NCBI GenBank assembly: GCA_964489525.1 | Contig: CAZAYY010000001.1 | Span: forward strand, 2,248 to 66,247 | Origin: an uncultured Anaerolineales bacterium | GTDB taxonomy: Bacteria > Chloroflexota > Anaerolineae > Anaerolineales > JABWBV01 | Direction: 5' to 3' | Length of the DNA stretch: 64,000 nucleotides | Part shown: positions 7,435 to 51,872 of the stretch, in pieces | How positions within the stretch are numbered: the stretch's first letter is position 1 | Layout: every line of letters begins with the position of its first letter | Notes under the pieces: generated by a model | Told to the model about the DNA's origin: nothing | The model's database searches: none | The model's input: the letters and a program-made list of their open reading frames with translations, nothing else | Position numbers and translations under genes: made by a program

Positions 7435-8955
7435 TTACCGGAAGATAAGGGGCAAGAAAATATTGCTGGTGGTAACAGCGCTGCATGTCGAACCGTTGAC
7501 CGTGAGGGTAACCTGGCTGGGTTGGTAGTCGGCGCTCCAATCAACAGAGAGCGCATCACAGCCAGCCATGCGCAGTGTGATGGTTTCTCCATCTTGAAAA
7601 CCGGGTATATTCCGGGCAAGGTCTGTCCCAAAGGCCAGCGAGAGCCCAAAAACGCCGCCGCTGCCCACCGCGGCACAGCCAGCCCGTTCGCCGCGCGGGG
7701 TAATCAGTTCAATCACGGTACCAATCGGGGCAGGTGTGCCGTCCAAATAAGCGCGGCCATACAGCAGGGAGGCGTATGGGGTGGCTGAAACCCCTGCACA
7801 GCCCGGGGGTTCGGCAGGGGGCAGGCTTCCAACAGCCGGGTACTCCAGGATTGCTGGTTGCGTCATGTGCACCAGGTAGCCCTGCCCCTGGCGAAAGGCC
7901 GAAAGGGTTTGGTAGTCTGCGGGTAGGCCGGGTGCATACGCGCCCAACTGCCCCACAACCAGGTCATAACTGCCCGCAATCGAGGCCAGGGCTTCGGCAG
8001 GGGGCAGAGGCGCATCGCCGCAGTACCCCAACCAGCGCCAGCCCGTTTCCAGCGGGATGGGTTCGAGCGGGTTGGCCTGGTTGCCAACCAGGATGAGCCT
8101 TTGCGGTTCGGCTGCATCCAGGTGCAGCCAGTATGCCCAGGGGGTGGACAGGTGTTCAAGCGTGTTCGCATCGCCACCAAAGGCGCCATCCGCACCCAGC
8201 AGCAGCGTGTCAAACGCTGCCAGGCTGCCCAAGGCCGTGGGGATGCTTTGCAGGGCCGGGTTTGCACAGGGGGCAAACAGGTTCCAGCCCGGCGCGGTGG
8301 GTTGGGTATGGATAGCGCCGTTCCAGGCAGCCAGATCCAACAATTCAGCGTTGGGGGAAACGGCCAGCAGTTCCAGGGGAATGGTCGCCAGCCCGGGGGC
8401 TGTGGGGCGGTTGGCTTCGAAAATAGCCAGGGTGCCATCGCCGCTGAATCCAGGTTCGCTGCCGTAAGAATAAGCCCCAATTGAAAAGGTGTCGTCTTCT
8501 TGCAGCGGGCCAACCTGCCCTACGCTGCGCCCGGTGCTTTCCAGGGCGCTGCCCAGGCTGATCGAAAGCAGCCCGGCCTCCCCTTCCGGGCTGCCCGCGC
8601 TGATTTCATACCCGCCCAGGTCTTCCAACCCATACCCAAGCAGGGCAAGCTGGATCGTTTCAGGCCCAAACCCGGCTGGCGCCCACCCCGCTGCCGGTCC
8701 CACTGCCTGCAAGAGTTCCGCACCGCTTAACAGGGCCAGGGATGTTTCTTTGCCAGGTTGGCCATTCGAAGTCCCAGCCAGCCCGGCAGGGCTGCCGGAT
8801 TGGGCCGGGGTTTGGCTGGCGCTGCCCGGCAGTTGCCCGGCGGGTTGGGCGAGGGGCGGTGTAGAATTGGCTGGCCCAGGCTCCCCGGAACAGCCCGGGA
8901 TCCACAGCGCAGCCAGGATCAGGATCAAAAGCCAGTGGTGCCAGGTTGCTTTCAT
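7435..8955 (-). CDS. secreted protein / probable lipoprotein of unknown function, with the C-terminal IFLPLIFR tail
   Basis: I moved the start to the ATG at 8955 (AGGAGG 6 nt upstream). The signal peptide with Cys reads MKATWHHWLLILILAALWIPGC. I recognise no domain. The start is 50 nt downstream of the giant gene's stop. Confidence 0.6.
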   Translation of the reverse strand: MKATWHHWLLILILAALWIPGCSGEPGPANSTPPLAQPAGQLPGSASQTPAQSGSPAGLAGTSNGQPGKETSLALLSGAELLQAVGPAAGWAPAGFGPETIQLALLGYGLEDLGGYEISAGSPEGEAGLLSISLGSALESTGRSVGQVGPLQEDDTFSIGAYSYGSEPGFSGDGTLAIFEANRPTAPGLATIPLELLAVSPNAELLDLAAWNGAIHTQPTAPGWNLFAPCANPALQSIPTALGSLAAFDTLLLGADGAFGGDANTLEHLSTPWAYWLHLDAAEPQRLILVGNQANPLEPIPLETGWRWLGYCGDAPLPPAEALASIAGSYDLVVGQLGAYAPGLPADYQTLSAFRQGQGYLVHMTQPAILEYPAVGSLPPAEPPGCAGVSATPYASLLYGRAYLDGTPAPIGTVIELITPRGERAGCAAVGSGGVFGLSLAFGTDLARNIPGFQDGETITLRMAGCDALSVDWSADYQPSQVTLTVNGSTCSAVTTSNIFLPLIFR

Positions 8956-9005
8956 GGGGTTCCTCCTGCATTTTGGTGTGCGGGTGGTCTGGTTGCCAAC
9001 CATGG

Positions 9006-12000
9006 TTATTCCACCTCAATTGTGAAAGTGGCCTTCCAGGGTTCCGCAACGTCATCCCCCGGGTCGTCGGGGTCGTTCAAATAGGTGAGTTTCACCTGTG
9101 CGCCGGTGTTCCAGCATCCGCCATCATTCCACCAGCGGTTGTCCCAGCCCACCCAGGTTTCGGGTTCGCAAAAACCCAGGCCAACCCCCAACCAGAGGTC
9201 GCCGGTGAAGGCCGTACAGCCCTCGGCAGTGTCGCAGGTGCGCCCGCCCTGGCTTTTGCCCGATTGGCGAATGTGTTCAATCACCAGGGTAACCTCACCA
9301 CGGGCGCTGATCAGGCACAGCCCTGTGCCGTACACGCTGGCCCGCAGGTAGCCGCCGTAAATGGGGTCGCTTCCCCCTGAAGGCTCGAAGTACCAGAAGC
9401 GCACTTCCCCGCTGGCAGCCACAATGACGGTGCACGGGCGGATGTTGTATATTGGGAAATTGCCCCAAACGGCCACGTACACCCCCGTAAACAAACCCGG
9501 TGGAGCGGCACTGGCCGATTTGCCGTTATCTGCGCCGATTTTGTCCAGCAGGTCTTTAAAACCGGCCTCGCGCAGCACAGCGCTGGTCGGGTTGATTTTG
9601 CCAAAAAGCAGGGCAGCCCCCACGGTATAGCCGCTGAATGTGCCCTCGCCGCGCAGGCCCAGGTAGAACATCGGCTCGTAGTTGTACTGCCCGGCTCCGA
9701 ACACGGCTCCGATATAGCGGAATTTTAACTCAGAGATGGTCAGGTCTTTCAGCGCCAGGCTGCCTTCAATCCGTTCATAGCCGGCTTTGGTGCCAATCAG
9801 CAGGGCAAAATCGGCTTTGATCTTAAAGTCTCCGGTCAGGCCGGTGCTGACATTTTTGCCGATAATCAGGATTTCGCCGTCCCGGTTGATTTGAAGGCTC
9901 AGCCAATCGGCGTTGACCAGGGTCTGGTTGCTCACGCTGACATCTACCTGCGACCCAAACGCCAGGCTGACCAGCCGGTAATCTTTGCCCGCTTTTTCGA
10001 AAATGATCTGGCCCATGCCGGTATTGAATTTCACCCCGGCATTGCTGAGCAGCGAACCCGTGGAAAGCCCTGTAATACCGTAGGACTCTTTGCCTTTGAG
10101 TGCCAGCACCACGGGCTCTAACACCGCATAGGCTTCTTTGTAGCTCAGCGAGGTAGACTGCCCGCCGGACTGCTTGATCCATTTGCTCCAAATGACCGAG
10201 GCCAGGTCAACCGGGTCGTTCTGGTTGTTGGGGTTGCGATCCCACCCGCCGTAGTTAAAATCGGAAGCCCAATCTGCAGTTCTCTTTGAAACCAGCGACC
10301 AGTCGTTGGGGTTGAGGATGGTGAAATCGTGCAGCGCCAGGGCACGGAAGGCGGCCTGGCTGGCGGCGTAGCCGAAAAAGATGCCAAAATCGCCCACGAA
10401 GCCTGCCGAGCTGTCGAAGTTGATTTCCGCCACCACAGCGATATCGGATTTAACCACTTCCAGGCCGCTGAGCGGCAGAACGCTGAAATCTTTAAACAGG
10501 CCCACCAGCGCCCCGCCGGAGGTATTGGCCATGAATTTGACCGGCAAAAATTTACTGATGACCCCGTTGATCAGGGGCAGCGCCAGGCTGAGGGCAGGGT
10601 TTTTGGCCGACCCCACCACCACCCCGGCCCCCTGCACAATTTGGGTGACGATGCCCGCCGCGCCGCCAATGCTGATGGGCATGGAGCTGTATACCGGCCA
10701 TTTGCTGAGCAGGGAATCGGCCACGTAGGGCAGAACCCCGGCGTCATCCGCGGCGCGGGCAGATGGGTCGGGTTCCACTTCGCCAAAGAAGCTGACCGCG
10801 CCGTTGCCATCCACAACCACCAGCCCGCAGCCAAAAACCTGCCTTGCTGCGCAGGCTTTTAAGGATGCCCCGGTCAGGACGCCGTCTGCATCCAACAGGG
10901 CAGGTGAAAACGGGACCAGGTTGGCGGCTTGTGCCAGGCCCAGGGTGGAAGGCAGGCTGGTGTGGTCCAGCGGCCGGGCGTAGTAGCGGCTGAGCTTGAT
11001 GTCGCGCAAGGCAAAGGCAACGCCACTCACCCGCAGGTAGTCGGGAAGCTGCTGGTTGGAAGCGCCGGTAGGCAGCGCCAAAATGTCGCCATAATCCCCG
11101 TCCGGCAGCCACTGGCTGTGCAGGGTGATGCTCACCGGGCGCGAGGCCTCGGCAAGGGTTGTGGGGTTCTGGCCCAGGCCGTTGATATAGGCCTTGCCCT
11201 GCAGTTCAAGCACATGGGTGAACGCAGCGGGTAGCGGCTCGCCGAAGCTGGACTGGTAGTCTTGCGGGTAGCTGGTCTGGCTGGTGGGCACAAACTCGGC
11301 ATGGTCGGGGTATTCCAAAAAGTTCCAATACTGGTGCAGCACCGGGCCGGCGCTGCCAATTTCCCCGCGAGCCGGGCAGGCATCCATTGAAAAGCTGTTG
11401 ACCCCATCCAAAACCCATTCAAAACTGGCGTTGGTCGGGTAAGGCAGGCGCAGGCTGAACAGGCCGGTGGTGGGGTCTACCAGGGTATTGTCCAGGAAAA
11501 CCAGGTCTAGCTGGCTGATCGAAAGTTCATAGCCGCGGTAGCGGATGGCGCCGTAGCTGTCTGCATGGAAATGCACCAGACCGCTCACCCCACCCCGGCG
11601 GACATACAGGTCGAAATCTACATCGTTAAACAAAGCCGGTTCAGCGCACGGGTATTCCACCGCGCTGTGCTGCGCCTGGATGTTGAAACCAGGCTCCAGG
11701 CTGGCATAGGCTGGCGCAGTGGCCTCAAGGGAACGCCAGGCGTTTTCGGCAGGGGCTGGCGCCCAGGGGGCCAGGCGCGGCCAGCCATTTTCGGCGTAGG
11801 TCGCACCTGCGGCGTAGAAGCTGGCAGCGACTTCCGGCCGGTTGGTGTCCACCGCCATCCCCTCCAGCCAGGCCAGGCCGGCCGGGCTGAATGAAACGCT
11901 TCCGGCCAAAATGCCGCCGGGTAGAACGGGCAGGTCGGCCAGCCCGGTTTGGAGGGTGGTATATACCGGGGGAACCCCGGCGCGCCAAGCCGGGTAATAG

Positions 12001-15000
12001 CCTTCTTTTACCAGGTAGCTGAGGTCGGTGCCGATGGCCTGGTAATCGAGGCTAAGGGCTGCGTCAAAAAGCAGCCCATCAAGCACCTGGCTTTCAGCAA
12101 TTTCCAGGCTGGCCCCGCTGGCCATCACCACCACAGCCCCAGGCAGGCTGGTGTTGTAGGCCACTGCCTGGGTGGTGGTGAACGCACCCTGCAGCCCTAA
12201 CTTCGAAACCACGACATTGGGCGAGGTGTATACTGGGCGCATGAAGGCCAGGTTGTTGTCTGGCAGCGCCAGGGTTGGGTTCAACGGCGCAGGCACCGCC
12301 ACCGGGGTGTATACCAGTCGGGAAACCGTGGTGGCCTGTCCGCCGAGGCTGGCCTGGCCCGCTCCAATGCTCAGGCCTTGGGGTGAGCTGATTCTCCAGG
12401 GTAAATTTTCATCCACAATTTCGTACCCGGCCAGGTCGAACAGCGGTTCGTACGAAAAATCGGGCAGGGCGTTGAAGAAAACTGCAAACACCTGGCTGCT
12501 GCGCCACCCGGTGGTAGTAGACTCTACTACCTTGATATTGTGGGGCAGCCCCAGCAGCACTTCAATTTTCGCCAGTCCCGGGGTAAATTCAATGTGGCCT
12601 AAATACTGCTGAAATTCAGCCGGGGCTTCTTTATAAACATCCAGTGTGGTAACAATTCGCCCGCTGGTATGTATCCACTGCCCATCTTGAAAGGTCACCC
12701 CCACGTTGAGCACATCGGTTGGGAAAGCGTCTAACCCGCTGGTGCGCAGCATCCCCCGGCCGTGCAGGTTGTCTAACGAAACCGTAATACCGCAGGCCGG
12801 GTTATACTCGCGGTAGGCGCTCATCAGGATATACCAGCCATGCGCCAGTTCAATCCGGGCGGGCAAATCACCCCCGGCGGGAATTTCCGTGTAGGAACAG
12901 GCAACGCTGGGGCCGGGTGGCAGGGGGGCGGAAAGATACACCGGCTCTGGCGCATCGCGCGGCCCAATATTAAGCGATTCCCAATAGCCCAACACTTCCC
13001 AGGAAAGCGGGCTGAAGGCTAGGGCCATGTAATTATAGGCTTGCTCCGGGCTGGGGTCGGATGTATCCACGATGACCCAGGTGTTGGTGAACATGCCGCC
13101 CGGGCCAAAGGTGCCCTGGGTAAGGGTGATGGGTTGGACCGGGGTAACCTGCATCCAGTTTTGGCCTTCTCCCTGGCGGAAGAGCGCCACCCAGGGCTGC
13201 AGGCTGCCCGGCTGGACATCTTCCATCTGAAAACCGCTGAAATAGACGTTGACCGCTGGCGTGGCTCCTGCATCCCATTCCAGGCCGAGTAACTGCCCGG
13301 CCTGGGTCAGGTGACGGTGGGTGCCCAGGAAATTGTTCGGGTTGCGCAGCAGCACAAACTGCGAACGGCTCTGCCCGTTCAGGTTGGTGTTATAAATCTC
13401 CACTTCGAGCGTTTCCCCATCCCTGGCGGAAAGCGTGGGCGTGTCGCCGGGCTGGACAGAAACCGTGGATGACTGCACCTGCAGAATCCCCTCGCTGGCC
13501 CGGTAGACCTTTACCTCGCGCCGCTCCAGGCCGGCGGCTGAACCCACCAGGTCAAGGTCCACTTCCCACACCAACGTGTCGGGGTTTTGACTGTGGTAGT
13601 TCTCGCCATTCCAGGCGGGGGCCTGCGGGGGTGTGCCCGGGTTGCTGGTATCGCAGTAGGGCGGCTGGTTTTCGGCTGGAACCAGTGGGGTGACATTGCC
13701 GTAGGCATCCACGGCTTCAAAGCGGTAGTACAGGTTGGCGGGGTAGGGAGCCACGTAGTCTTCGCTAAAAGTCACCTGGCCGTTTTGAATTTCGAGCCGC
13801 CGGATAAGCTGGAAATCCGCCAAGGACCCACCAGGCGTGAAATCAGCGCCGGGTTCAAACGCCCGGTAAACATTGAGCATTACCAACCCCGGTGTCAGCC
13901 CGGCCAGGGCCAGGGGCGGTTTGTCCGAACAGTCTGCCCAACCGTTGGTGTTGGGGCTGAAGGCCGGGGCGGTGCGCGGGTACAGCCCGGCCTGCACTGG
14001 CGGCGCGGCGGGTGACCAGTTTCCGGCATTGTCGCGAAGCTGCACACTGTACCAGAAAACCTGGCCCAGCGGCGGGGTGTCTGTGATAGACAGGGTCACT
14101 GTAGGCGAGACGCGGTGGCTGGCCACCACGGGCAGGGGAACCCCGCCAGGGGTAAGCTCTGTCCACAGGGTGGCGGTCAGGGTGGGGGTGGGGCTGCGCA
14201 CAAAAAAGGCGCGTAAAGGCAGGCTGGTTTCAAGTGCATCACTGTACACCAGCGTGAGCGTGAGCAGGCTGTGGTCAGGGGCAGCCAGCGCTTCCAGCGG
14301 CGGGGCGGCCGCGGGCGGGTCGAGGTCGCGCACTGCGGCGGCCACATCGCTGCACGGTCCTGGCTTGCCCAGCAGGTCGAGCGGGCACACCCGGTATTCG
14401 TACCCGCCAAACAAAAGACCGGGGAAAGCAGCCGGGTAGGCGTTGAACAGGTTGTCTTCAACAAAATAGCGGCCATCCGGGTCTTCCAGGTCCTGCGGGG
14501 TGCCGGGGCGAATGGGCCGGAAGCCGCTCATCGCCTCCAGGGGTGGGTTGACCCACTCCCAGGAAGAGCCAGTGGCCGGCCCGTTGCGGTAAATCGCATA
14601 CCCACCCACGGCTGGCTGCGAAGCGCTTGGGCTGGGCATATCCCACACCAGGTACACACTGCCATGCGCCCGGCGGTCGGCCTGGGCGCTGTCCCAGTCG
14701 TAGCGTTCCCCGGCGGTGAACGGGCGCAGGCTGTTGGGTTTGCCTAACTCGGATGGGCCGTCGAAAATTGCCGCCTCGCGCAGGTTGGCTGGGGCAGACA
14801 GGCTCGCGCCTGCTGGCACGGTGACCGGCCCAATGATGAGCCAGGCCTGGTCCTTGGGGGAAACAAAATACTCCACATCCCCCGGTGGGGCGTCGCCGTC
14901 TATAAAGGCCAGCCCAAGCGCCATGGCTGCCTGGTAATACTGGTCGGCCAGGGCGCTGGCCCGGCCGGGTTCTGCCAGTAAGATGTCGTATATATCTTCC

Positions 15001-18000
15001 ACGCTCAGGGGTTGGGATGGATCGAGGGCCAAATCTACCCTGATTTGATTGAGCATGTTGGGCCACTGAGACAGGAAGCCTTCCAGGTCGGATGGGCTGG
15101 TGACCATGCGGGTCTCGCCAATGGCCACAAAATTTTGCCCGCCCGGCGCCCGCCGGTAAATGACAAATTCTGAGCCCGGGCCTGTATGGTCGGCAGGCAG
15201 ACCGAACGCCTCCCAGCGCCAGCGCAGCAGCACCCAGCGGTATCCCTCGACAGTGTCCTGCGCCCAAAGCAGGTTGCGTGCATCACAGGGCGCCCGCCAG
15301 GCGGTGGCCAGGGTGGTGACTTCTTCCACCTCCACCAGGCCGTTCTGGTTCAAGTCGTGTTCAGGGCGCAGGGGCACAAGCCCCACCCGTCCCGCCGCAA
15401 GCTGGATATCCTGGATGCTGACGGTTTTGGTCCCCGGTTTGGCGTCCAGGGCCACATTGCAGGCCGAAACCAGCGGGGTTCCTGGCGGCAGGTCGTTATC
15501 ACGGATGATTACACTGTGATTGGCCAACCCCAGCCGGGCATGGGCGCTGGGTACAGCGCTGGGGTTGTAGAGCGTCACCAGGATGACTTCTTCATTTTCA
15601 TTGGCTGTGTCGTCCAAAAGCTGGATGGGTATCGTTTGGGTGGTTTCGCCCAGGTTAAAAGTGAGGGTTCCACTGATTGGGGTGAAATCCTGCCCGGCAG
15701 ATGCCGAGGAACTGGCCAGGGTGGTTGTATACTGCACCGTCACCTGGCTGGAAGCCGGAAAGGCCAGCCGGACAGGCAGGTTGAGCACTCCATTTGTCTC
15801 AACAACACTGGTGGTTTCCGTTTCAAACCCTACGGTGTTCTGGTACATACCAGCGTCAATCCCGGCCTGGGCCTGGCCGTTGGCAAGTGTGAAGGCAGCG
15901 GTGCGCCAGGTTGCCGGGTTCACATCGCTGTCCAGGGCCTCATCGGCGCCCTGGTCCTGCAGGGTGAAGGTGTAGCCGGTGGGTTTGAGCACTTCAATCC
16001 GATAGCTGCCGGGTTTCAACCCGGAGAAGAGATATTCGCCGTTCGCGCCGGTGCTCACACTGTCCAGGGGCGTGGCCTCGTCGGGCGGCAGCAGCAGCAG
16101 GGTCACCCCGGCAATGCCGGGTTCGCCGGGGTCTTGCAGCCCATTCTGGTTCAGGTCTTCCCAGGCCCGGTCGCCTACCGAAGATGGTTTATAAAACCCG
16201 GCGTCCCAGGCGAGGGCGTTCTGACCGGCAGCCAGGGCAATGGCAGCGGTGCGCCCGTTGGTTGGGTCGGCGTCGCTGTCCAGGGCGTCGTTGGCCCCCT
16301 GGTCCTGGGGACTGTATTGGGCATCAAACGGCTGGTCAAACACCACCTGGTAGCTGCCCGGCAAGAGTCCTTCGAAGCGGTAGGCCCCGTTTGCCAGGGT
16401 CAGGGTTTGGGTGAGAAACTCGCCCTGGCGGAAAAGCGAAACCGCAAGGCTGGCAAGCGGGGCGCTCTCCTGGCGCACACCGTCTGCGTTTGCATCTTCC
16501 CAGGCCATACCACCCAATCCAGCCGGCTGGACGACCTGGATAGAAGAGATTGCCGCGTCACTGGCCAGGTTTCCAGGGCTGCCAAGCTGGTGGGCGCTCG
16601 CTTCGGTGTGCAGCAGGAAGCTGGCTGCACCCACCACAAACCCACAGGTATAGGTTTTGCTCGCCCCGGCTGCCAGGTTGCCCAGTGCCTGGGTGCATTC
16701 CGAGATGGGGAAGGTATTGGTTTCTTCGCCAAATGCGCTCACAAACAGGTTTTCCAGGTTTACCGAGCCGCTGTTGGTTACAACAATCGTAACCGATATT
16801 GGGCTGTTCACCAGGACGACCGGTACGGAAGGCTGTTGGGCAATAACCAAATGGACCGGGAGAAAAGTTCCTGTGGGCGTTGGGGTTTGGCTGGGTGTTC
16901 CCGTAGAAGTGGGCGTAAAAGTGGCTGTAGGCGGCTGGGTGTTCGTCGGGGTTGGGGTCGCGGTTTGGGTGGTTGTGCTGGTGGGGGTTGCGGTGTGGGT
17001 GCTGGTTGGGGTGTGGGTCTTTGTAGAAGTAGGCGTTGCTGTGGGGGTGTTTGTACTCGTGGGGGTTGCGGTTTGGGTATTGGTGCTGGTAGGTGTCGCG
17101 GTCTGGGTGTTTGTTGCTGTGGCCAGGCTGGTTGGGGTTGGGCTGGGTTGGGGCGGAGGAGGCTCGCCCGGGGAATAACGGCCAATGTACAGTGATGGCT
17201 TGCCCCCGGCTAACCTGAAGTATCCTGCAGCCCATAAATCGTAAACCGGGCCTGCTTGATGTAAAATCGCTGCTTTTGGCTCGCCATCTGCCAGACCACT
17301 GCCCAACGGCATCCACTCGGTGCCATCCCAACGGGCGGCATTTTGGACAGGCGTCCCCCCTGCCGATGTGAAAATTCCAAAAGCGTACAGGTAACCCAGG
17401 TTGTCGGCAGCCAGGGCGAACACTTCGCCGGTTTCTATACCAGTTCCCAGGGAGGACCAGGAGGAACCGTTCCATTTTGCAATGCGACCGGTCGAAGCCC
17501 TACCAGCAGAAGAAAAACCACCACCCGCATAGAGATTGCCAAATCCATCTACTGCCAACGCATACACAGGCGCGTCCATGCCAGCCCCCATGGCAGACCA
17601 GGCTGTGCCGTCCCAACGGGCAATATGATTGACCAAAACCCCGCCGGCGTGGGTGAAATCCCCGGCGGCGTAGAGGATGCCATCATCATAGGCCAGCGCC
17701 CGGACCGAGCCGTTCATGCCGTCCCCCAGGGCATGCCAGCTATCGCCATCCCAACGGGCAACGAACAGAGCGCCCTGGCCGGAAGCATTGGAAAAATCCC
17801 CCCCGGCATACAGGCTGCCTGGGGCAGCAGCCAGGGCATACACCGTGCCATCTACCCCATCGGCGAGCGGAAACCAATTGGAGCCATTCCAGCCTGCAAT
17901 GCCGTATGCGCTGACTTCACCCGCCTGCCAAAAGCTGCCTCCGGCATACAGATTGTAGTCTGAACCTATTGCCAAAGCATATACCGTATGATTGACTCCG

Positions 18001-19337: not shown

Positions 19338-19682
19338 CACTTTATCCTCCACAATTCCCACGAAAGACGCAGATTCCAGGCACCACAGTATCCATGCATT
19401 TTTCAGCATGGCGGTGATTTCTGGCAAATCTCCAGGAAAACCAGGCGAGGGTATGTTGGGGTGGAGAAGAAATCGAGTTGACAGCAAAAGCGCCCGGCAC
19501 CGCCAGGCTTTTTTATTCACCCATTACCAGGCAGATTTCCCCTGGCGGGCCTGATCTTCCAAACAAAAAAAACGTGGCGGTTTTTTGGCAATCGCAAGCG
19601 GGTTGCCCTTGGGTTTAACACCCCCCGTCCTTCCTACCGCCAGGGCAGCCTCACCGGCGAACGCTTTCTTTAATTATTTAAA

Positions 19683-19711
19683 GTGTAGACCTTTTAGAGG
19701 GCGGCGTCAAG
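19683..19711 (-). promoter_or_regulatory. candidate sigma70-type promoter for the giant gene
   Basis: The minus strand reads TTGACG, then 17 nt, then TACACT. Use of this promoter would imply a 5' leader of about 340 nt before the ATG at 19337. Confidence 0.3.
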
Positions 19712-19894
19712 CGGCTTTGATAGCGTAATCGCATCTTATCCAACCAAGAGTTTGAGGAGATCATCCACATTCCAACCGCACTATTCATGACATAGTTGTC
19801 ATTCCATCATCAATTGATGTTAGGGTTATGTCCGAGTCTCGCAGTGACAATAGGTAGAGCGTTACCCGATTTTATACACTCATTTTTTACTCTC

Positions 19895-22800
19895 TTATCG
19901 CCGGATGAGGGGTATATAGACGAGGAAGCCGTGATACTCATAGACGCCCAGATCTATGACGGCATCTACAATCCGGGCGTTGCCGTCCAGGTCGGTGGGG
20001 CTGGGATTGAAAGCGTTCTGCCCCAGATTGAGTGCAGGAGAGGTGTTTTGTAGCCGGTAATTGCCCGAGGTGGTGGGGGTGGCAAAGGGGCTGGCCTGGA
20101 AGAAAAAAAGCGGATCGGCATCGGCCAAGTTGCTGCCGTTGTCCGTACCGCAGGCGGGGTTCCATACCCCGTCAGGTTTGCAGCCGCTCACCAGGCTGAA
20201 GGTAAAGGTGGGGGTGGAACTATCTTGGTTGGCAACTTGCGACCCGATAGTTGCCAGGTTGCCCCAGATAAGACTGTTCCGGATCAACGGGTTGCTGGCA
20301 CTGCGATTGAATATCCCGCCCCCTGTCCCCGCACGGTTGCCGGAGAAGGTTACATTGGTCAGGGTGGGACTGCTGTCTGTGTTGTACATCCCCGCTCCAA
20401 AGGTTGCATGATTGCCCGAGAAGAGTACTCCCACGAGGATGGGATTGCTGGAGTTGTTCTGGATCCCTCCGCCGAGGTCGGCCTGGTTGCCGGTAAATGT
20501 GGTGTTGACCAGGCTCGGGTTGCTTTCTGAGTTGAACATTCCACCACCAAACCACGCCTTGTTGCCGGAGAATGTCGTGTAGGTTAACAGGGGATTGCTT
20601 TCTTCGTTGAACATCCCACCCCCATTGAATGCGGCGCTGTTGTTTGCAATGGTAACGTCCGACAGGGTAGGGTTCGCAGAGAAGATGTTGTATATCCCGG
20701 CACCGTATTGGGCAGAGTTGTTGGAAATGAGTACGGTGAAAAGGAGGGGGCTGCTGTACCAGTTCCAGATCCCGCCGCCTTCCAAGCCGGCTTTATTGCC
20801 CGAAAAGGTCGTGTGGGTCAGGAGGGGGCTGCTTTCTTCGTTAGCTAACCCACCACCCAGGTAAACTGACTCGTTGCCGATGAAAGCCGAGTCGGTCAGC
20901 GTCAGATCGCTCGCATAAGTGTACATCCCGCCACCGGCTTGGCCCGCGTGGTTACCGGTGAAAGTGGCATAAGTAATGCTTGGGCTGCTGTTATCGCTGG
21001 CCATCCCTCCACCAGAGCTGTTAGCCCGGTTACCCGTGAAGGTAATATGAGCAATGGTCGGGCTGCTGCCACCAAGGGTGACCATTCCACCGCCAACAAC
21101 TGCCTGGTTGCCAGAGAAAGCCAGGTTTACCAGCACCGGGCTGCCCGAAACGATATATAAGCCTCCGCCGCAGTGAGGACCGCAAGGCGCTACGAAGCTT
21201 AAAGTTGCCATCCCGCCCGTGATGGTGAAGCCATCCAGCACCGCACTACTATCCGTCCCGCTGCCGGTGACTACGTGATGGGCGTTATTTCCGGACATAT
21301 ATTCTGTGTCGGTAATCACTCCATAGGAATCGGTGGTATCGTTCTGGTAAAGGTCGCCGCTCAAGACAGTGAGGTTGGCTGTCCAATTGCGTTGGGTGCG
21401 TTGGGTTTCGGTGCCAACAAAACCACCGTAAATTCTCACTCCGTTTTTGAGGGCAAAAGTGCTGGTGAGCAGGTCATCCGTTTGGTCGAAGCCTTCGTCG
21501 GGGTAATAAACGCCTGCAGCCACCCAGATTTCACAGCTTTCGACGACAGCCAGGGCATTTTGCAGTTTAGGGAACGCGCTGGGCCAATCCTGGCCGATGG
21601 CGGCACCAGCAGCATCCACATCCACAAATAAAACGCCTCCCGCCGGGCATAACAAAACCTGATACTCATAAGCACCTAGGTCAATGATGGCATTTGCAAT
21701 GCGCGGATTGGTGTCCAGGTCGGTAACGGTAGTATTGAAGGCATTATTCCCCACGTTGAGCGCAGGGGAATTCTTTTGCAGCCGGTAGTCGCCCGATGTG
21801 GTTGGGGCGCTGACTGCGCTGACAGGGGTGACAAAGAGCGGATCGGCATCTGTCCGGTTATTGCCGCCGTCCGTACCGCATTTTAAAGTATCCCATAAGC
21901 CACTGGGGCTGCATCCCTGCACAAGGCTGTAAGAATAGGTGGGGGTAGAAGAACCCAAGATGAGATTCTCCGGGCCGATAGTTGCGCTGTTGCCCCAAAA
22001 GATGCTGTTCCGGATGATTGGGTAGCTGAATTCAGCGTTGAACAATCCGCCACCGTACTGCGCTTGGTTGCCAGAGATGGTGGCATTGGTCAATACCAGG
22101 GTGCTACTCTGGCTGTTAAGAATCGCACCGCCAGATTGGCTGGCCTGGTTGCCGAAAAAAACAACATTGGTGATATTTGGGCTGGAGGAGTAGTTGTACA
22201 GCCCGCCACCGTCCAAGGCGTGGTTGTCAGAAAAGGAAACGTTGATTATGGTTGGATTGGAGCCGATGTTGTACATTCCGCCACCAGCAGAGGCTTTGTT
22301 CCCAGTGAAAGCGGAGTTCGTGATGGTTGGGCTGCCGCCGCTGTTGGTCATTCCGCCGCCGGAGCTGTGTTGGGCTGATTCAGTCGCCAGGCCGGCAGTG
22401 ATGGTGAAGCCATCGAGTACCGCAGTGTTATTTGTCCCGCTGCCAGTAGTGACGTGGTAGGCGTTGCTGCCAGTGGGGCTGCCGGCGTCATTACCATCCA
22501 GGTCGCCGTTCAAGATGGTGGGCTGGGTAACCCAGTTTCTCTGGCTGAGCTGGATTTCGGTCCCGGCAAAGCCGCCGTAGAGGGCAACGCCGTTCAGGAG
22601 GGCAAAGGTGCTGGTGCGCAAATTGTCAATTTGGCCGGCACCAATGTCGGGATAGTAAACACCGGCGGCCACCCAAATCTGTTGGTTGGCGGCTGGGCAG
22701 GCAGCAGCCTGTGCCAGGGCATCTTGCAGGCCGGTGTAGGCGTTAGCCCAGTCTGCACCATTATTGGCGCCAACGGCTGCGGCTTTCACATAGATCGGGG

Positions 22801-22954
22801 TAAAGGAACTGCAGATGGCAGAAGTGGGGGCCGGTCGGCTCATGGCCAGGGAGAACACGAGGGCGAGTATGACCGTGACGCTCTTGATTAACAAGGGGGG
22901 GTGGAAATAATGGGAAAGTAAAGACAGCATGGACTTCTCCTGTGATGGACGCAT
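19895..22954 (-). CDS. secreted right-handed beta-helix (PbH1 / polymorphic-membrane-protein-type) protein made of two tandem paralogous modules, with the C-terminal VYIPLIRR tail
   Basis: 1019 aa with a hydrophobic N-terminal signal/anchor. The head IWVAAGVYYPD...TSTFAL.NGV..YGGF.GTE.Q..QRNW occurs twice. Both modules carry many G-G-G/N-rich beta-helix rungs (GGGMYN, GGGLFN, and similar). Both end in a choice-of-anchor-Q-like segment (DADPLF...TTSG.YRLQ..SPALN.G.NAFN....DLD.N.RI..A.IDLG.YEY). Confidence 0.75.
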   Translation of the reverse strand: MRPSQEKSMLSLLSHYFHPPLLIKSVTVILALVFSLAMSRPAPTSAICSSFTPIYVKAAAVGANNGADWANAYTGLQDALAQAAACPAANQQIWVAAGVYYPDIGAGQIDNLRTSTFALLNGVALYGGFAGTEIQLSQRNWVTQPTILNGDLDGNDAGSPTGSNAYHVTTGSGTNNTAVLDGFTITAGLATESAQHSSGGGMTNSGGSPTITNSAFTGNKASAGGGMYNIGSNPTIINVSFSDNHALDGGGLYNYSSSPNITNVVFFGNQASQSGGAILNSQSSTLVLTNATISGNQAQYGGGLFNAEFSYPIIRNSIFWGNSATIGPENLILGSSTPTYSYSLVQGCSPSGLWDTLKCGTDGGNNRTDADPLFVTPVSAVSAPTTSGDYRLQKNSPALNVGNNAFNTTVTDLDTNPRIANAIIDLGAYEYQVLLCPAGGVLFVDVDAAGAAIGQDWPSAFPKLQNALAVVESCEIWVAAGVYYPDEGFDQTDDLLTSTFALKNGVRIYGGFVGTETQRTQRNWTANLTVLSGDLYQNDTTDSYGVITDTEYMSGNNAHHVVTGSGTDSSAVLDGFTITGGMATLSFVAPCGPHCGGGLYIVSGSPVLVNLAFSGNQAVVGGGMVTLGGSSPTIAHITFTGNRANSSGGGMASDNSSPSITYATFTGNHAGQAGGGMYTYASDLTLTDSAFIGNESVYLGGGLANEESSPLLTHTTFSGNKAGLEGGGIWNWYSSPLLFTVLISNNSAQYGAGIYNIFSANPTLSDVTIANNSAAFNGGGMFNEESNPLLTYTTFSGNKAWFGGGMFNSESNPSLVNTTFTGNQADLGGGIQNNSSNPILVGVLFSGNHATFGAGMYNTDSSPTLTNVTFSGNRAGTGGGIFNRSASNPLIRNSLIWGNLATIGSQVANQDSSTPTFTFSLVSGCKPDGVWNPACGTDNGSNLADADPLFFFQASPFATPTTSGNYRLQNTSPALNLGQNAFNPSPTDLDGNARIVDAVIDLGVYEYHGFLVYIPLIRR

Positions 22955-23176
22955 AAGGGAAAAACCACAGCGACCTTCGCAGGATGAAGGGGTTTGGATA
23001 CTGTGTAATCTCCAGGGGTTCTTTGAAGTGTGTGGACCGCTAAAGGGTTAAAAAGGAGTATATCATAGGCGAGAGGAGTGGGAAGATTCTTTAAATTCCC
23101 CCTTTTGCAAACTTGGTGAAATCTCTTGTGCAGTGCCCGTAAAACAGTGCATGACGCGCCAGAATAATCACGAAAT

Positions 23177-23275
23177 ACTTGACCGGCAGCTTTTCTTCGT
23201 AGAGGTGCAAAATCCCGCGGAGAAGCTTTTGTTTGTTAATCAACAGGTAAGCAGTATGGATACTCCAACCCCTCG
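23177..23275 (+). repeat. copy 1 of a ~98-nt direct repeat (partner at 50927-51024)
   Basis: It shares identical runs of 34 nt (23192-23225 = 50941-50974) and 25 nt (23227-23251 = 50976-51000), plus ATGGATACTCC. By eye, roughly nine of ten positions are identical across the repeat. Confidence 0.8.
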
Positions 23276-23404
23276 AAAAAATTCGCTTTCCAGCCGCAAT
23301 CAGGTGGGGCAGCACTGGCGAGGTGACCAGCCCATTCGCCACACTCAGAGGGGTCTTTAAAAATGGCCTTATCGGCGGTGGGCGCAGGCTGCTCCGCTCT
23401 GCCA

Positions 23405-23674
23405 GTTCTTTGGTGTAGCGCGGTTCAGCGTACTGGATGACCGCATACCCACCAATAATCAGGTATCTAACGTTGTTGGCGTTGAAAAGACTCAACAGAT
23501 CGCTGAAGTCGGAGTTGGCGAACATCGTGGCCTTTTACGCTCCAGGCGTGTACTACCAGTTCCCAGGCAGCCTTGAACCGCTCATTGGTGGGCTGGGACT
23601 GCCAAAACTTTCAGCTCAAATGACCTATCCAGGTCAGCGAGCTTGCCCTTGCGTTCAGAGAAAATTTTATCCAT
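23405..23674 (-). pseudogene. decayed two-gene module: frame-broken small ORF plus the N-terminal ~40 codons of a nucleotidyltransferase
   Basis: The small ORF MDKIFSERKGKLADLDRSFELKVLAVPAHQ* (23674-23582) continues in another frame as PTNERFKAAWELVVHAWSVKG. The ATG at 23525 then gives MFANSDFSDLLSLFNANNVRYLIIGGYAVIQYAEPRYTKEL, an NTase-type N-terminus. Similarity is lost after that, and the rest of the 144-aa track ORF is antisense to repeat copy 1. Confidence 0.45.
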
Positions 23675-23954
23675 AGCTTGATTATTCTTTCAGCAGAGAA
23701 TTTAATTTTTCTGAAATAACCCAAATGGCTGTAATAAGTCACGATCTGTATGAGTAATTATTTTTGATGCGGTAGATTGAGACATCAGGCAAGGTCTTTT
23801 TAATCTAATTATGAACCATGAGATGTCGCCTGCCAATATTGAGCAACACCTGGAACATCTCGTCGCGAACGGGTTCGCCAGTTCTGTTGACCAGTATATT
23901 GCCAACTACAACCCAGGCTGTCTTGCTTATCTAGAATCACTTTTAGTGATTTAC

Positions 23955-24917
23955 CTAGTTGGGCGGGCCAAATACTTCTGGTGGAAAGAAAAATTGGGTC
24001 ATGGCCTGTACGACCGGTTCTTTTGGCCCAACGCTGTCGGCAAATTCGGGCCAGAGTTCTGTCATGGAAAAGGAGTATAGATGGGTGTTGAGGCAGCGGC
24101 GGGCAAAGTGCGGCGGCAGTTGCCCATCAGGAAAAAATGCTTGCAAACAGCGCCGCATGGCCTCCTGGTCCTGGTTTATCGTCCAGAACCAATGAAAAGC
24201 GATATCCCATTCCGCAGGGCCCAGCATGGCCTCCGCCCAATCAATAAAACCTGTAATCTTTGCTTCACCTGCCTGGCGAGCGACGTAAATGTGGGCGTGC
24301 GAGAAATCGGAGTGGGTCAATACCAGGGGTTGGGTCAGGAATTCGCGCGCTTCTCCGTTCATGTGATCGAGCAAGGCCTCTCGCTGGCGCAGGGATAAGC
24401 GCTCAGCAGCCTGGATTTGCGCATTTCGTTCTGCCAGCATGGCAGCCGCATATTCGTACCGTCCGCCAAATCGTGCTTCCACGTGTGCCAGCGTTTCCTG
24501 TGGCAGTGGGTGAACTGCCGCAGTGATGGTTCCAATTTCGTGAGCAATTTTCAATTGCTCCGGGCGGGTCAGTGTTTGCCAGGTGTGCTGCAAAGTTGCT
24601 CCGGCAATCTCAGTCATAATCAGATAGGGCGGCAGTTGCGAACGCTCTCTCGCAGCAATAAAACGCGGGGCGGGAATAGCCGGATTTTTGGACAGGGTTT
24701 GCAGAACATTCGATTCGACGTGGAACTGGCGCTCAGAATTTGGCCCATAAAGTTTGAGACAGCGTTGGCTTCCGATCCGAAAAACGGCGTTATTGCGATT
24801 CACATCGGAACCGGAGAATTTTTGTTCCCAGGTTGTAATCATTTCAATCTCGCCATGTGCCACGTTCGCATCGTTGCAGCAGGCTGTCGCCAGGTCTGTC
24901 CAATCTTTTGAGTTCAT
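23955..24917 (-). CDS. aminoglycoside/choline-kinase (APH)-family phosphotransferase
   Basis: The catalytic loop reads LTHSDFSHAHIYV (an H.D....N-type motif with His in the Asn position). The metal-binding segment reads ITGFIDWAEAMLGPAEWD. The start is only 24 nt downstream of the stop of the 2315-aa gene. Confidence 0.7.
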   Translation of the reverse strand: MNSKDWTDLATACCNDANVAHGEIEMITTWEQKFSGSDVNRNNAVFRIGSQRCLKLYGPNSERQFHVESNVLQTLSKNPAIPAPRFIAARERSQLPPYLIMTEIAGATLQHTWQTLTRPEQLKIAHEIGTITAAVHPLPQETLAHVEARFGGRYEYAAAMLAERNAQIQAAERLSLRQREALLDHMNGEAREFLTQPLVLTHSDFSHAHIYVARQAGEAKITGFIDWAEAMLGPAEWDIAFHWFWTINQDQEAMRRCLQAFFPDGQLPPHFARRCLNTHLYSFSMTELWPEFADSVGPKEPVVQAMTQFFFPPEVFGPPN

Positions 24918-24941
24918 CGTTTGGCTCCTATCATTGATGCT

Positions 24942-27900
24942 TTAGCGGCGCAAAAGCGGCAGGTATACCTGGTGCGGGGTGATGATGGCGTAGACCTGGA
25001 TCACATAGGTGAACCCATCATCCCGCTGTCCCTCCTGCCCACCAGCCAAATCTCCAGGGCTGGAAATGATCAGTTCAGCCCTGTATTCGCCAAAAGGCAG
25101 GCCGTGGTTCAGGTTCACCAGCAGGTTGTCCGGCGTTTGGCCTCCGGGGGCGGAAAGGGTCAACCAGGTGGCCGTAGTGACTGCCGTCCACGAGATGGGG
25201 GTGCTGTAATCCAGGTTATACACATTGATCAATGCCGCAGTTTCGCCGGGCTGGTTGGTGAGGACAATTAAGCCATCATCGGGTGAAATGCGCAGTTCAG
25301 TGGGCTGCAGCGGGAGCAGCGCGGTATCCGTAACCACGCCCAGGGTAAACAGCAGTTCGCTGGCATCCCCGTGGCTGTCCACGGCGCGCAGGGTGATGGT
25401 ATGTTCGCCCGGCGCAAGCTGCACAGGCAGCACACTCCCTGTGCCCAGCAAGCCCGACACATCCGATGTCCAGGAAATTTGAAGATCGTCCAGGGCGTCG
25501 CCGTCCGGGTCGGTGACCCAGGCGCGCAGCGGGATGGTTTGATCCACCAGGAAAACCGCACCCGGGGCGGGGTGCGCCAGCCCCAGGTCCGGGGGTTGGT
25601 TAGGCACCACAAACGCGCCGCTGTCTGCGTACACGGTGTGCAGCCCATCACTGGCCATCACCCGCAGGCGGGCAGCAGGGCTGGCGCTGATTTGGGAGCG
25701 GGAGATGGTGAGCGTGGGGGTCACCAGGTCGGTGGCCAGGGTGCGCCAGCTTTGGCCGTCATCCGGGCTGAACAGTACGCTGAAGTACAGCAGGTCGCCG
25801 TCCGGGTCGCCCGCTTCCCAGGCAAGCGCAATGTTTCCCTCGCCCAGGATTTCCGGCGCCAGGGCGGGCCAGGCAGGCTGCAGCACTGCACTGAATGGAG
25901 AAACCTGTTCAAACAACAGCGGGGCGGTCAGTGTCAGCGTGGGCGGGTTGGGGCTGGCCTGGATGCTGCCCAGCAAAGCGCTGCTGGGACCGGTCACTTC
26001 CAGCAGTTCCACACCGGCTGGCAGGGCCACTGCCTGGGTGAACAAAACCTCCGCGCCGCCTTCGTAAGCAGAGTTGTCGCGCATTTCCAGCGGCACGCTT
26101 TGCAGCAGAACCCCGCCCGCACCGCGCAGCACAAGGGTATACTCGCTGGCTGCCGGGGGCAGATCCGGGTAGGCTTCCGGCAATACGTACAGCGGCATAA
26201 ACGCAAACTGGCTTTCAATGGCGTCGTAGATTGCGCTGAACAGCAAAACCGGGCCAGGCGCGCCTTGTGCCTGGCGGGTTGATTCTTCCCTGGGTAGGTT
26301 GCCGACAAAATTGATGATCGCTTGCCAGGTATAATCGCTGATCCATTTGTTATTGCAGTAGGTCATGATATCGCCGTACCGGTTGTACCAATACGTCTCC
26401 TCATCCTGGATGTTAAAGCCCACGAACATCCGCGTTCGATCGCCTAACAGACCATCCTCGTAGGGATAGTTGTCGTCCACGCCTTCGGGTTTTGTGCAGG
26501 GCATCCACTCATCATCAGTAGGTGCATCCACATGCTGGCGGCCTTGAACATGCCCGAGTTCGTGCATCAGCGTGCGCCCATCCGTTGAATCAACAACGAA
26601 TAAAGTCAATCCAACCGCCATCCCGGCAATTTTGAATGTGCTGTTATCGGCTCTGCGCCCGATGATTCCGGCATGGTCGGGGATCAGGCCTCCGTAAATG
26701 GTGCCCGCCTCGGTTGCACCGGAGGCAATATCTCTTGCCAGCAAACCTGATAAAAAGCCCATAACCTGGTTGCTGGACGGCTTGGTTGGGGCAGCGGGCA
26801 TGACTGCCGAACGGACCTGGTAATTCATATTCACCGGGTAGTGATTTCGCATCATTTCCAACATCGCTGCCAGGTTTTCTTCGTTGGGGCGAATAATGGT
26901 GCAGGGTTGGAACAGCGGGCAAACGTTGTAAGACACTTTGTAAATCACCAGCGAAGCGTTGGGCGGTGGGGAAGTAAACGAAACTTGCAGGCTGATCTGG
27001 TTGTCGGTATAGTTCTCTTCTTGAATAGCCTGGTCGGCATTTATTTCTGCCACCAGGTTAAGCATTCCCTGGCTCATGTGCGCAGGCAGTTCATACCAGT
27101 AGTGCGTGTTGAAGCCCTCTTCACCTATAAACCCTTGCCAGCCGGATTTAAGTGGGCGCGGGTTTAACGCTTCAAGGCGCTGTCCATTGGCGTACACATC
27201 CATTTTGACATTGTCCGGTGGTCGATTTCGGCATTCGGGGAAAGCGGTTTTAATAACCACAGAAGGAGAGTAGCGTATAAAAGTCTGGCGACCAGCAACC
27301 AGAGGTACATTTTGCGTGTAGGCCCCCTGGATGGTTTGGACAACCTGGATCTGGCTCTCGAAGTTTCCAGTAAAGTTAACGCAAATTGGCGGCGTATCAT
27401 CGTCTTCGATGGATGCCAGGATCTGGACCGGGCTTTGCCTGTCCAGCCTGGCATTTTGCGGGTTTTGTAAAACCACACTGAAAGTTTCAAGGGGTTCTTC
27501 CAGGTCATCTTGCAGTACCCGCAAGGTGCAGGGCATCAGCACCTGTCCCGGGTCAAAGGTAATGGTCTGCAGGCGTTCAACACTGTAATCCTGCATGCGC
27601 GTGGCAGTACCGCCGCCAAACGCACAGGTCACCCGCACCGGGATGGGCGATGGAGCAGAGAGCTGAACATAAATCAGCCCAGTCCCTCCTGAATTGGCCT
27701 CGGAAAATGTTACAGCGCTCTTCTGAAAAAAGACGGAGGGAATATCATCGTCTTCAATAACCAGCGTCATCTGGTTATCAATGTAGGGGGTGGGTAAGCC
27801 GTTGGTGTCGCGCAGAAGCCCAAACACGGCATTGGATGGGTTTGCCAGTTTTAACCCGATAACCTCATCGTTTTCGCCCGTTATAGCGTCGTTGGTGATG

Positions 27901-32202: not shown

Positions 32203-32362
32203 ATTGTAGATACGGATAGGGTCGCGAGCGCATTCCCCGGCAGAATGCCGCAAGAACTGGCCTACCGAGGCCCAAAGCCCTTTCGTTCTGTTTGTATTGA
32301 TCTGTTCTGCTTACAATAAAGTACACAATGATAGGCCAATCCTGGCCAAGTATAATATTTAC

Positions 32363-51250: not shown

Positions 51251-51323
51251 GTCTGGGCAATGTTGAATCGTTTTGATTGGCAGGTTGGCTGCTTCTAAGG
51301 CCAACCCCACATCCGGAGTTTTG

Positions 51324-51872
51324 ATGTACCCGTCGTCGATGTCTGACCTGAAGGAATCTTCAGTACATTGGTATGCCTTGCGCAGCAAGCCGCGCAAAGA
51401 GGAAGCCGCCTACCGCGAGGTTGTCAATCGCGGTTATGAAGCTTATTTTCCGCGCCTGCGGGTTAACCCGGTCAATCCCCGCTCGAAGAAATTCCAACCC
51501 TACTTCCCTGGCTATTTGTTTTTACGCGCCGATGTCCAGGCTGTGGGGATTTCCGTCTTCCAGTGGATGCCGCACACCCTGGGTTTGGTGATGTTTGGTG
51601 GTGAACCGGCTGCCGTTCCTGAAAACCTGGTTCACGAACTGCGCTCCCGGCTGGCGCAGGTACAGGCTGCTGGCGGCCAGGCTTTTGCCGGGCTGCAGCC
51701 AGGCGATGTGGTGCGGGTCGAATCTGGCCCGTTTGCGGGTTACGAGGCGATTTTTGATGCCCGTCTGGATGGCACTGAACGCGTCCGGGTGCTGCTGCGC
51801 CTGCTCAACAGCCGCCAGATGCCCCTCGAACTGCCGGTGGGGCAGGTGGTGCGCTTAAAAAACAAGGCCTGA
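51324..51872 (+). CDS. specialised NusG paralogue (RfaH/LoaP/UpxY-like transcription antiterminator)
   Basis: The NGN domain reads WYALRSKPRKEEAAYREVVNRGYEAYFPRLRV...FPGYLFLRAD. The KOW domain reads GDVVRVESGPFAGYEAIFDARLDGTERVRVLL. I chose the ATG at 51324 (GGAG 6 nt upstream). The gene sits at the head of a polysaccharide locus, not in the secE-nusG-rplK context. Confidence 0.8.
   Translation: MYPSSMSDLKESSVHWYALRSKPRKEEAAYREVVNRGYEAYFPRLRVNPVNPRSKKFQPYFPGYLFLRADVQAVGISVFQWMPHTLGLVMFGGEPAAVPENLVHELRSRLAQVQAAGGQAFAGLQPGDVVRVESGPFAGYEAIFDARLDGTERVRVLLRLLNSRQMPLELPVGQVVRLKNKA

Follow-up and report, generated by a model that had tools for sequence, protein, structure and literature searches.

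A transmembrane-free C-terminal tail as a candidate sorting or retention tag on exported proteins of Chloroflexota

We analysed a stretch of 64,000 nucleotides (hereafter the window) from an uncultured Anaerolineales bacterium of the phylum Chloroflexota (GenBank assembly GCA_964489525.1, contig CAZAYY010000001.1, positions 2,248 to 66,247 of the forward strand). Three secreted proteins encoded there end in closely related octapeptides, IFLPLIFR, VYIPLIRR and VYLPLLRR, and the same tail recurs on exported proteins of many other genomes with the consensus φ-[YF]-L-P-[LV]-[VI]-x-[RK], followed by a stop codon or by a short extension (0-6 residues in all). We propose, with a probability of roughly 60%, that it is a C-terminal tag for sorting or retention, specific to the lineage and without a transmembrane (TM) helix, which is carried by Sec-exported proteins and read by a factor encoded elsewhere. 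Comparison of sequences shows that the tail peptide itself is under strong selection; that its role is in sorting or attachment, rather than in some other C-terminal function, we infer. The first-pass annotation of the window had described a short C-terminal recognition motif as a candidate for sorting, processing or attachment, and this description is supported by the conservation of the tail, its enrichment on secreted proteins, its novelty and its occurrence where other proteins carry anchors.

All three tails lie on the minus strand and comprise exactly eight codons followed by TAA, in the places first reported: IFLPLIFR at 7438-7461 (stop codon at 7435-7437), VYIPLIRR at 19898-19921 (19895-19897) and VYLPLLRR at 24945-24968 (24942-24944). 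Each was read from the translated open reading frame (ORF) and recovered by motif scan, and the second is also covered by an AlphaFold model. The first carrier is encoded by an ORF of 522 amino acids (aa; 7435-9003, minus strand) ending in …TTSNIFLPLIFR before the stop. Its probable start is M17, which gives a protein of 506 aa; the database form has this same start and begins MKATWHHWLLILILAALWIPGC, a segment (8890-8955, minus strand) that reads as a predicted signal peptide with a lipobox-like …AALWIPGC, plausible if atypical. The second carrier (19895-22954, minus strand; 1019 aa; C-terminus …HGFLVYIPLIRR) is a secreted right-handed beta-helix protein with two modules of PMP repeats and choice-of-anchor Q. 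Its predicted signal peptide region (MLSLLSHYFHPPLLIKSVTVILALVFSLAMSRPAPTSA; 22817-22930, minus strand) was read from the translation, and the N-terminal ~36 residues have a low predicted local distance difference test (pLDDT) score. The third carrier (24942-31889, minus strand; 2315 aa; C-terminus …PHQVYLPLLRR) is likewise secreted, with a predicted signal peptide, again from the translation, at 31797-31889 (minus strand; MKKSLAFLGSVVIGICLVIGLFWLLPGSAQA), and combines a beta-helix, choice-of-anchor Q, a cadherin-like domain and three Calx-beta domains with an HExxHxxGxxH motif.

Signal-like sequences had been noted at the N-termini of all three proteins and are seen in the translations. Pfam and NCBIfam scans found PMP repeats and choice-of-anchor Q domains (NF041518) in both the 1019-aa and the 2315-aa protein, in agreement with the choice-of-anchor-type ends attributed to two of the carriers; the metzincin assignment of the 2315-aa protein stands as well, its motif reading HELGHVQGRQH alongside the Calx-beta domains. 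Neither Pfam nor NCBIfam assigned the first carrier to a family; an orphan, it has itself as its sole match among 5.8 billion proteins and is therefore uninformative on the conservation of the tail.

Among the 546 C-termini of six-frame ORFs of at least 60 aa in the window, the strict tail expression matches three, the carriers alone, and the core motif occurs once more in all six frames of the window. The back-translated DNA pattern has three matches in the window against 0.00 expected from 100 dinucleotide-preserving shuffles. Codons for Leu, Pro and Arg differ among the three tails and the DNA downstream is unrelated; it is therefore the peptide that is conserved and not a DNA repeat. The TAA that follows all three copies could be taken to favour a nucleic-acid by-product: the tail would then stem from a repeat, the footprint of a mobile element, a terminator or the context of translation termination, and the peptide would be functionless. 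This explanation is effectively refuted. A DNA repeat or mobile-element footprint is ruled out by the differing codons, the flanking DNA is unrelated, and all three stop codons are used after tails across genomes; moreover, the tail is conserved at the amino-acid level among homologues of 40-50% identity, and its occurrence is tied to proteins with signal peptides.

To other genomes we applied a single codon-restricted DNA pattern, RTNTAYCTNCCNCTNGTNNNNCGNTRR, encoding [VI]-Y-L-P-L-V-x-R-stop, in a database holding one genome per species. Since it admits only CTN codons for Leu and CGN codons for Arg, the resulting sample is biased to [VI]YLPLVxR-stop. At least 120 loci matched and 120 were analysed (L-numbers below denote these loci; taxon labels are as given on the records of the metagenome-assembled genomes, MAGs). 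Among the matches listed, 100 of the 120 loci come from Chloroflexota. They include Anaerolineae/Anaerolineales, Thermoflexales, Caldilineales, Ardenticatenaceae (Ardenticatenales) and Herpetosiphonaceae, and within Chloroflexia the genera Roseiflexus, Chloroflexus, Oscillochloris, Chloroploca and Viridilinea. No match listed is named as Dehalococcoidia, Ktedonobacteria or Thermomicrobia, several being labelled only 'Chloroflexota bacterium'.

The Chloroflexota matches behave as genuine protein ends: among those listed, 97 of 102 close, in frame, an ORF of 100 aa or more or one that continues beyond the locus, and the longest tailed ORF reaches 2369 aa. In other phyla, 16 of the 20 matches listed lie in tiny ORFs or are followed by TGG, and are therefore put down to chance. 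Across 2.9 million viral contigs the pattern was found in four places, all in ORFs of 27 aa or less and trivial. On one Patescibacteria contig (L009, 38% GC), in the company of ordinary housekeeping genes, lie the genes of two small secreted paralogues, side by side and each tailed: 227 aa at L009:62-745 (plus strand) and 218 aa at L009:996-1652 (plus strand), ending in …NNFIYLPLVTR and …QQQIFLPLIQG. Judged by these sequences, the presence of the tag outside Chloroflexota, in at least one Patescibacteria genome, is real.

Several MAGs have three or four loci each for the narrow scan pattern among the matches listed, and tails that the pattern had not selected occur in the flanking DNA at about 14 per Mb, a figure inflated by gene clustering. 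Together these densities suggest that a genome encodes tens of carriers. The tag-like motif first seen on three neighbouring proteins is thus real, while the local view taken of it was too small: the tail is lineage-wide in filamentous Chloroflexota.

The beta-helix carrier has thousands of homologues, of which the best 120 were used for tail counts (P-numbers below denote homologue sequences). A tail closes 51-53 of these 120, in forms such as IYLPVVVK, FFLPLVRR, LFLPLILR, IFLPLVVR, VYLPLVLRSTP, IYLPLVMRNR and VYLPLIVRHYR. When 53 of them are aligned on the Pro, position -1 holds V, I or L; position 0 is Y (33) or F (17); +1 is L in 44; +2 is P in all 53; +3 is mostly L (30) or V (9); +4 is V (32) or I (14); +5 is variable and mainly hydrophobic; and +6 is R (35) or K (14), after which comes a stop (27) or a short extension of up to about five residues, for example N-[YT]-P or G-Y. 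The Pro is equally invariant in the 61 aligned tails of the solute-binding proteins described below, where the stop follows directly on R/K in 41 of 61; the remaining tails of both families carry 1-6 more residues (NYP, NTP, STP, GY).

What stands at the same position in homologues that lack the tail is informative. Beta-helix homologues of other lineages have type IX secretion (T9SS) domains there, and further ones, some of them from Chloroflexota MAGs, have a TM helix with basic residues; the tail therefore occupies the position of recognised anchors. Among the homologues, P0005, P0040, P0044 and P0107 end in …VGPTAV-x-L…, a TM helix and a basic cluster, and several carry the label of a Chloroflexota or Anaerolineae MAG. 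Chloroflexota, and even one protein family, thus appear to have both the TM-less tail and a tripartite anchor of the classical kind.

Solute-binding proteins normally work at the cell, and for this reason their homologues were chosen for a test of retention. The query was the tailed family-5 solute-binding protein (SBP_bac_5) of locus L123, and homologues of at least 40% identity were counted as close. A tail is present in 61 of 69 close homologues by regular expression, with three further variants (61-64 of 69), against none of 51 distant ones (tail versus group, P = 9e-26). A lipobox was found in one of the 69 close homologues versus 13 of the 51 distant ones, including named Firmicutes with classical lipoboxes; the association of tail with lipobox reaches P = 4e-4, though the contrast is confounded with phylogeny. 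These counts fit the idea that in this clade the tail takes over from an N-terminal lipid anchor in keeping the protein at the cell. As a statement on ABC-transporter binding proteins we regard the idea as only partly upheld, since the tailed proteins have no permease genes next to them. Conservation in orthologues, the check proposed with the original observation, is therefore seen in two families, at 51-53 of 120 beta-helix and 61-64 of 69 close solute-binding homologues. Among the tailed SBP_bac_5 homologues, a subclade of ~700-aa proteins (a subset of P0140-P0190) has an extra C-terminal region of ~150 residues, with a conserved …ICHLS-x-FALFG… motif immediately ahead of the tail.

The T9SS C-terminal domain is itself primarily a secretion signal, and its replacement by the tail in homologues could also mean that the tail directs a second step of secretion, across a sheath, an S-layer or an outer membrane-like layer, or to the medium or vesicles, with no retention at all. 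The cargo, typical of secreted hydrolases and adhesins, would suit such a role. We nevertheless find it improbable: no secretion-system genes recur near the carriers, the solute-binding clade, whose members normally act at the cell, is almost universally tailed, and an outer membrane in filamentous Chloroflexota is debated, published opinion favouring a single membrane.

The cargo is diverse. The 101 carriers in the loci listed fall into 57 unrelated sequence clusters, and the 43 complete ones match 75 Pfam families, including beta-helix, LVIVD, FG-GAP, beta-propellers, PKD, InlB B-repeats, RCC1 and NHL, together with peptidases C11, C13, C25 and M23 and the family-5 solute-binding protein. 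Bacterial sorting systems usually serve extracellular cargo of just this kind. By a heuristic based on hydropathy, and not by SignalP, 36 of the 43 complete carriers (84%) have a hydrophobic signal-like N-terminus, usually with an Ala-x-Ala-type site, and only about one of the 43 has a lipobox. Among non-carrier genes used as control the figure is 15 of 53, mostly integral membrane proteins (odds ratio 13, P = 5e-8); the enrichment on secreted proteins that had been put forward as a test of the motif is accordingly present. If the tag is defined as the consensus within about six residues of the C-terminus plus an N-terminal signal peptide, it is found on the three window proteins and also on 97 genome-derived ORFs, 51-53 beta-helix homologues and 61-64 solute-binding homologues.

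The motif is strongly tied to the protein end. Among hits of the strict motif that the scan pattern had not selected, ten are terminal and two internal in 466,000 residues, one of the latter lying 11 residues from the end; in the beta-helix homologue set, 51 matches of the loose pattern are terminal and about four matches of the full motif internal. The rare internal copies stand between a complete module and an extra C-terminal domain: a PPC-like domain follows in P0024 (residues ~1600-1746), a CARDB-like domain in P0121 (~950-1134), and in L065:2473-5382 (minus strand) a second module with a terminal tail of its own. They may be products of fusion, or clues to a cleavage site. Tailed genes also cluster, two or three lying inside 8 kb in 13 of 91 loci, as they do in the window.

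Such internal copies at domain boundaries resemble cleavage sites and, with the strictly C-terminal location and the free, disordered state of the tail, they could speak for recognition by an extracytoplasmic protease, for instance a PDZ-type processing protease acting in maturation, turnover or quality control, with no part in localisation. We think this very unlikely. PDZ-type binding is anchored on the carboxylate, whereas the tail motif tolerates 0 to ~6 extra residues; it is hard to see why dozens of abundant proteins with structural, adhesive or enzymatic roles should be marked for degradation throughout a phylum; and positional equivalence with anchors points to sorting.

In an AlphaFold2 model of the 1010-residue form of the beta-helix carrier, built on a 34-sequence alignment, the mean pLDDT is 90, and the last nine residues, LVYIPLIRR, fall below 50 and have no secondary structure. 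According to this model the tail hangs free and forms no strand of the domain before it. A structural role is ruled out, the tail being disordered there and found after unrelated domain types. Upstream of it, R/K shows a 5-9 fold excess at -2/-3, and Pro one of 2-3 fold at -5 to -7.

This composition raises the question of a passive anchor, by which a hydrophobic stretch bracketed by basic residues would stick to the membrane surface or to anionic wall polymers with neither enzyme nor receptor. The hydrophobic hexapeptide with its aromatic residue at position 0, the R/K enrichment at -2/-3 and also at +5/+6, and the lack of a partner gene near carriers are what one would expect of it. By our own estimate from interfacial hydrophobicity scales, however, six or seven hydrophobic residues have weak membrane affinity; an invariant Pro and a near-invariant Leu over classes and dozens of families point to a specific site; and a generic patch need not lie within about six residues of the C-terminus. 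A purely passive anchor is on these grounds a poor candidate.

Among described systems, the nearest are small C-terminal sorting signals of the LPXTG and PEP-CTERM class, which Haft characterises by a signature motif, a TM segment and an Arg-rich cluster (Haft 2023, bioRxiv 10.1101/2023.06.07.544157). Like the tail, LPXTG, PEP-CTERM, PGF-CTERM, GlyGly-CTERM and MYXO-CTERM, which are read by sortase, exosortase, archaeosortase, rhombosortase and myxosortase respectively, are short C-terminal motifs on Sec-exported, otherwise unrelated cargo and are restricted to lineages; they too are found on tens of cargo proteins per genome, choice-of-anchor domains among them. At the core of the tail a hydrophobic residue precedes Pro, for which LPXTG has LP and PEP-CTERM has VP, and the signal finishes on a basic residue. 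By analogy with these systems, one housekeeping enzyme would serve the many cargoes of the tail and need not be encoded next to them. Unlike their signals, the tail has 2-3 hydrophobic residues between motif and basic residue, about eight residues in total and no membrane-spanning segment; nor does it have Thr-Gly, Gly-Gly or an invariant Cys. Its appearance is that of a tripartite signal in which 2-3 residues are left of the middle part.

The known signals themselves can be set aside one after another. After L-P the tail continues with [LV]-[VI]-x and never with T-G, so it is no LPXTG pentapeptide, and neither does it have the TM segment and basic tail of that signal: only 2-3 residues separate the Pro from the terminal R/K, and the protein ends 0-6 residues later. 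The same short spacing bears out the early remark that the tail contains no TM helix, and for want of this helix it does not qualify as an exosortase, archaeosortase, rhombosortase or myxosortase signal. Val and Ile are beta-branched, and Val is roughly isosteric with Thr; L-P-[LV]-[VI] in this respect resembles L-P-x-T in shape, which we treat as a lead and not as evidence. NCBIfam sorting-domain models gave no match at any carrier C-terminus, even at E <= 1. The sole rhombosortase-related matches, rhombotarget A (residues 192-304, E = 0.056) and SVAGG (1425-1470, E = 0.0065), were internal and weak and fell far short of the curated cut-offs.

The T9SS C-terminal domain (PF18962 / TIGR04183) shares with the tail its position in beta-helix homologues and its presence on large adhesins and hydrolases. 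It is a folded domain of Bacteroidota, roughly 70-100 residues long, whereas the tail is eight disordered residues, and the window carriers matched neither PF18962 nor TIGR04183. Motifs that act by beta-strand augmentation, such as the TonB box, PDZ ligands and pilus donor strands, are similarly 6-8 residues at a flexible terminus, and the alternating hydrophobic residues of the tail are compatible with a buried strand of this kind. Their receptors are known, and PDZ ligands are fixed relative to the carboxylate; the tail differs in its invariant mid-motif Pro, unusual for a regular strand. With 0-6 trailing residues and no fixed register to the carboxylate, it is neither a PDZ ligand nor a substrate of a C-terminal processing protease.

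The CaaX box processed by Rce1/CPBP enzymes is another very short, TM-less C-terminal signal, processed at the membrane, and bacterial CPBP relatives are presented as sorting enzymes in the literature on C-terminal signals (Haft 2023, bioRxiv 10.1101/2023.06.07.544157; PMC11980579). CaaX requires an invariant lipidated Cys on the cytoplasmic side; it is ruled out here, the tail having no Cys and being carried by exported proteins. An outer-membrane-protein beta-signal, with its terminal aromatic residue on a beta-barrel, does not fit tails that end in R/K on soluble multidomain proteins. A type I secretion signal, located in the last ~50 residues of proteins that lack an N-terminal signal peptide and often bear RTX repeats, does not fit carriers with Sec-type N-terminal signals and no RTX family found among their domains. 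No Pfam or NCBIfam model covers the tail, and the full-text literature searched does not describe it, although papers outside the searched library may mention it. Matches to the motif string in that literature were frog temporins, which start FLPLI and are unrelated; an activated-sludge Chloroflexi review had nothing on surface-bound exoenzymes or the envelope; and for Chloroflexus an older review notes just one protein with a sortase-like N-terminal region, and no evidence of sortase action (PMC1586193). The initial judgement that the tail is unannotated and no known sorting signal is in keeping with all of this.

Several observations weigh against a sorting or retention tag. Pfam scans of 24 window proteins, about ten further window ORFs being read by eye only, found no sortase, exosortase, rhomboid, CPBP or S41 protein among the 24, as the first-pass annotation had said of sortase- and exosortase-like genes. 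Likewise, when the 2590 ORFs of 100 loci and the window were clustered all against all, no recurrent non-carrier neighbour family emerged, the best occurring in 5 of 100 loci and being a beta-propeller fragment. Any partner must be encoded elsewhere, as is housekeeping sortase A. Without a TM helix, moreover, nothing obvious would keep the substrate at the membrane while an enzyme acted on it. A strongly Pro/Thr-rich linker able to span the wall precedes the tail in only 3 of 88 cases, and the few internal motifs followed by a further domain fit a processing site as well as an anchor. Where genomic context is visible (L125, L127), tailed solute-binding proteins are orphans with no permease genes nearby, and the phylogenetic confounding of the tail-lipobox contrast in that family adds to these points.

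If the tail is nonetheless a sorting or retention tag, the N-terminal signal peptide, present on the three window carriers and on 36 of 43 carriers from the loci, would first take the protein across the membrane. The flexible tail would then project from the folded protein, as it does in the model, and one conserved factor encoded elsewhere would recognise the invariant L-P core with its hydrophobic and basic surroundings. As a result the cargo, be it an adhesin-like giant, a hydrolase or a binding protein, would be kept on the cell envelope and would not diffuse away. That the Pro never varies and the Leu hardly ever does, over unrelated cargo and over classes, speaks for one specific binding site, and the tolerance of 0-6 trailing residues argues against recognition anchored on the carboxylate in the manner of PDZ domains. 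A position near the end with 0-6 trailing residues is compatible with an active-site cleft or a groove of limited depth. As to what the factor does, an enzyme that processes the protein, by cleavage of the tail and covalent coupling, is possible but doubtful, and a receptor that docks it non-covalently is slightly less likely still. A more far-reaching version, in which the tail is a minimal sorting signal read by a phylum-wide, new 'sortase'-type enzyme or receptor that fixes tens of adhesins, hydrolases and binding proteins per genome to the surface in filamentous Chloroflexota and some Patescibacteria, is put forward tentatively, at clearly less than even odds.

Soils, sediments, hot-spring mats and wastewater sludge all harbour Chloroflexota in abundance, and to our knowledge their means of holding proteins at the surface is essentially unknown. 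Should the 'sortase'-type version be true, it would describe the main surface-display route of a major, poorly studied phylum. C-terminal sorting signals are known as a class; what is new is the TM-less architecture of a sorting or retention signal, which would challenge the rule that those of prokaryotes require, besides a motif, both a TM helix and a basic cluster. A tag on tens of secreted proteins per genome would allow the surface proteome of Chloroflexota to be listed from sequence alone, and would provide a handle for finding the machinery that reads it, by peptide pull-downs or phylogenetic profiling. A small Patescibacteria genome with tails could narrow the search for a partner to very few genes, and should the machinery prove to be a transpeptidase, protein display or ligation could gain a new short tag.

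Other genes of the window lie close to the carriers. A giant secreted protein without a tail (9006-19520, minus strand; 3504-aa ORF, probable start M62) stands directly upstream of the first carrier, its stop at 9006 and the carrier's start at 9003, and the abutting genes suggest that the two are co-translated as a pair. Propeller-like repeats and a long Pro/Thr linker are found in the giant along with SdrD_B and Calx-beta domains, and a region of ~2100 aa has no family match; tailed proteins in L039, L099, L117 and L040 contain homologues of its propeller and SdrD_B modules. The first-pass annotation suggested that the giant may depend on its tailed downstream partner; what the sequences show on this point is the abutting genes and the occurrence of such modules in tailed proteins elsewhere. 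On the same strand, 25 bp downstream of the 2315-aa carrier gene, an APH-family phosphotransferase gene (23955-24917, minus strand) is probably co-transcribed with it, a functional link not being obvious. Upstream of that carrier gene and divergent from it is a MalT/LuxR-type regulator of 870 aa (32297-34909, plus strand; identified by eye), which may control the surface-protein cluster.

A cell-envelope glycan cluster extends over ~51270-63633 (plus strand). It includes a NusG-like regulator, two GDP-mannose-dehydratase/epimerase-like genes, an NTP_transf_5 protein, a TPR protein, a WecG/TagA glycosyltransferase fused to LPG_synthase_TM, a PMT_2 glycosyltransferase, an ABC-2-type permease (by eye) and an AlgX/SGNH-like protein; its product could be a wall polymer that surface proteins meet. 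Finally, two overlapping genes (36695-37576 and 37573-38427, both plus strand) encode paralogous multi-pass membrane proteins of 293 and 284 aa, which have no Pfam match and both begin …WLIPLIFILAL….

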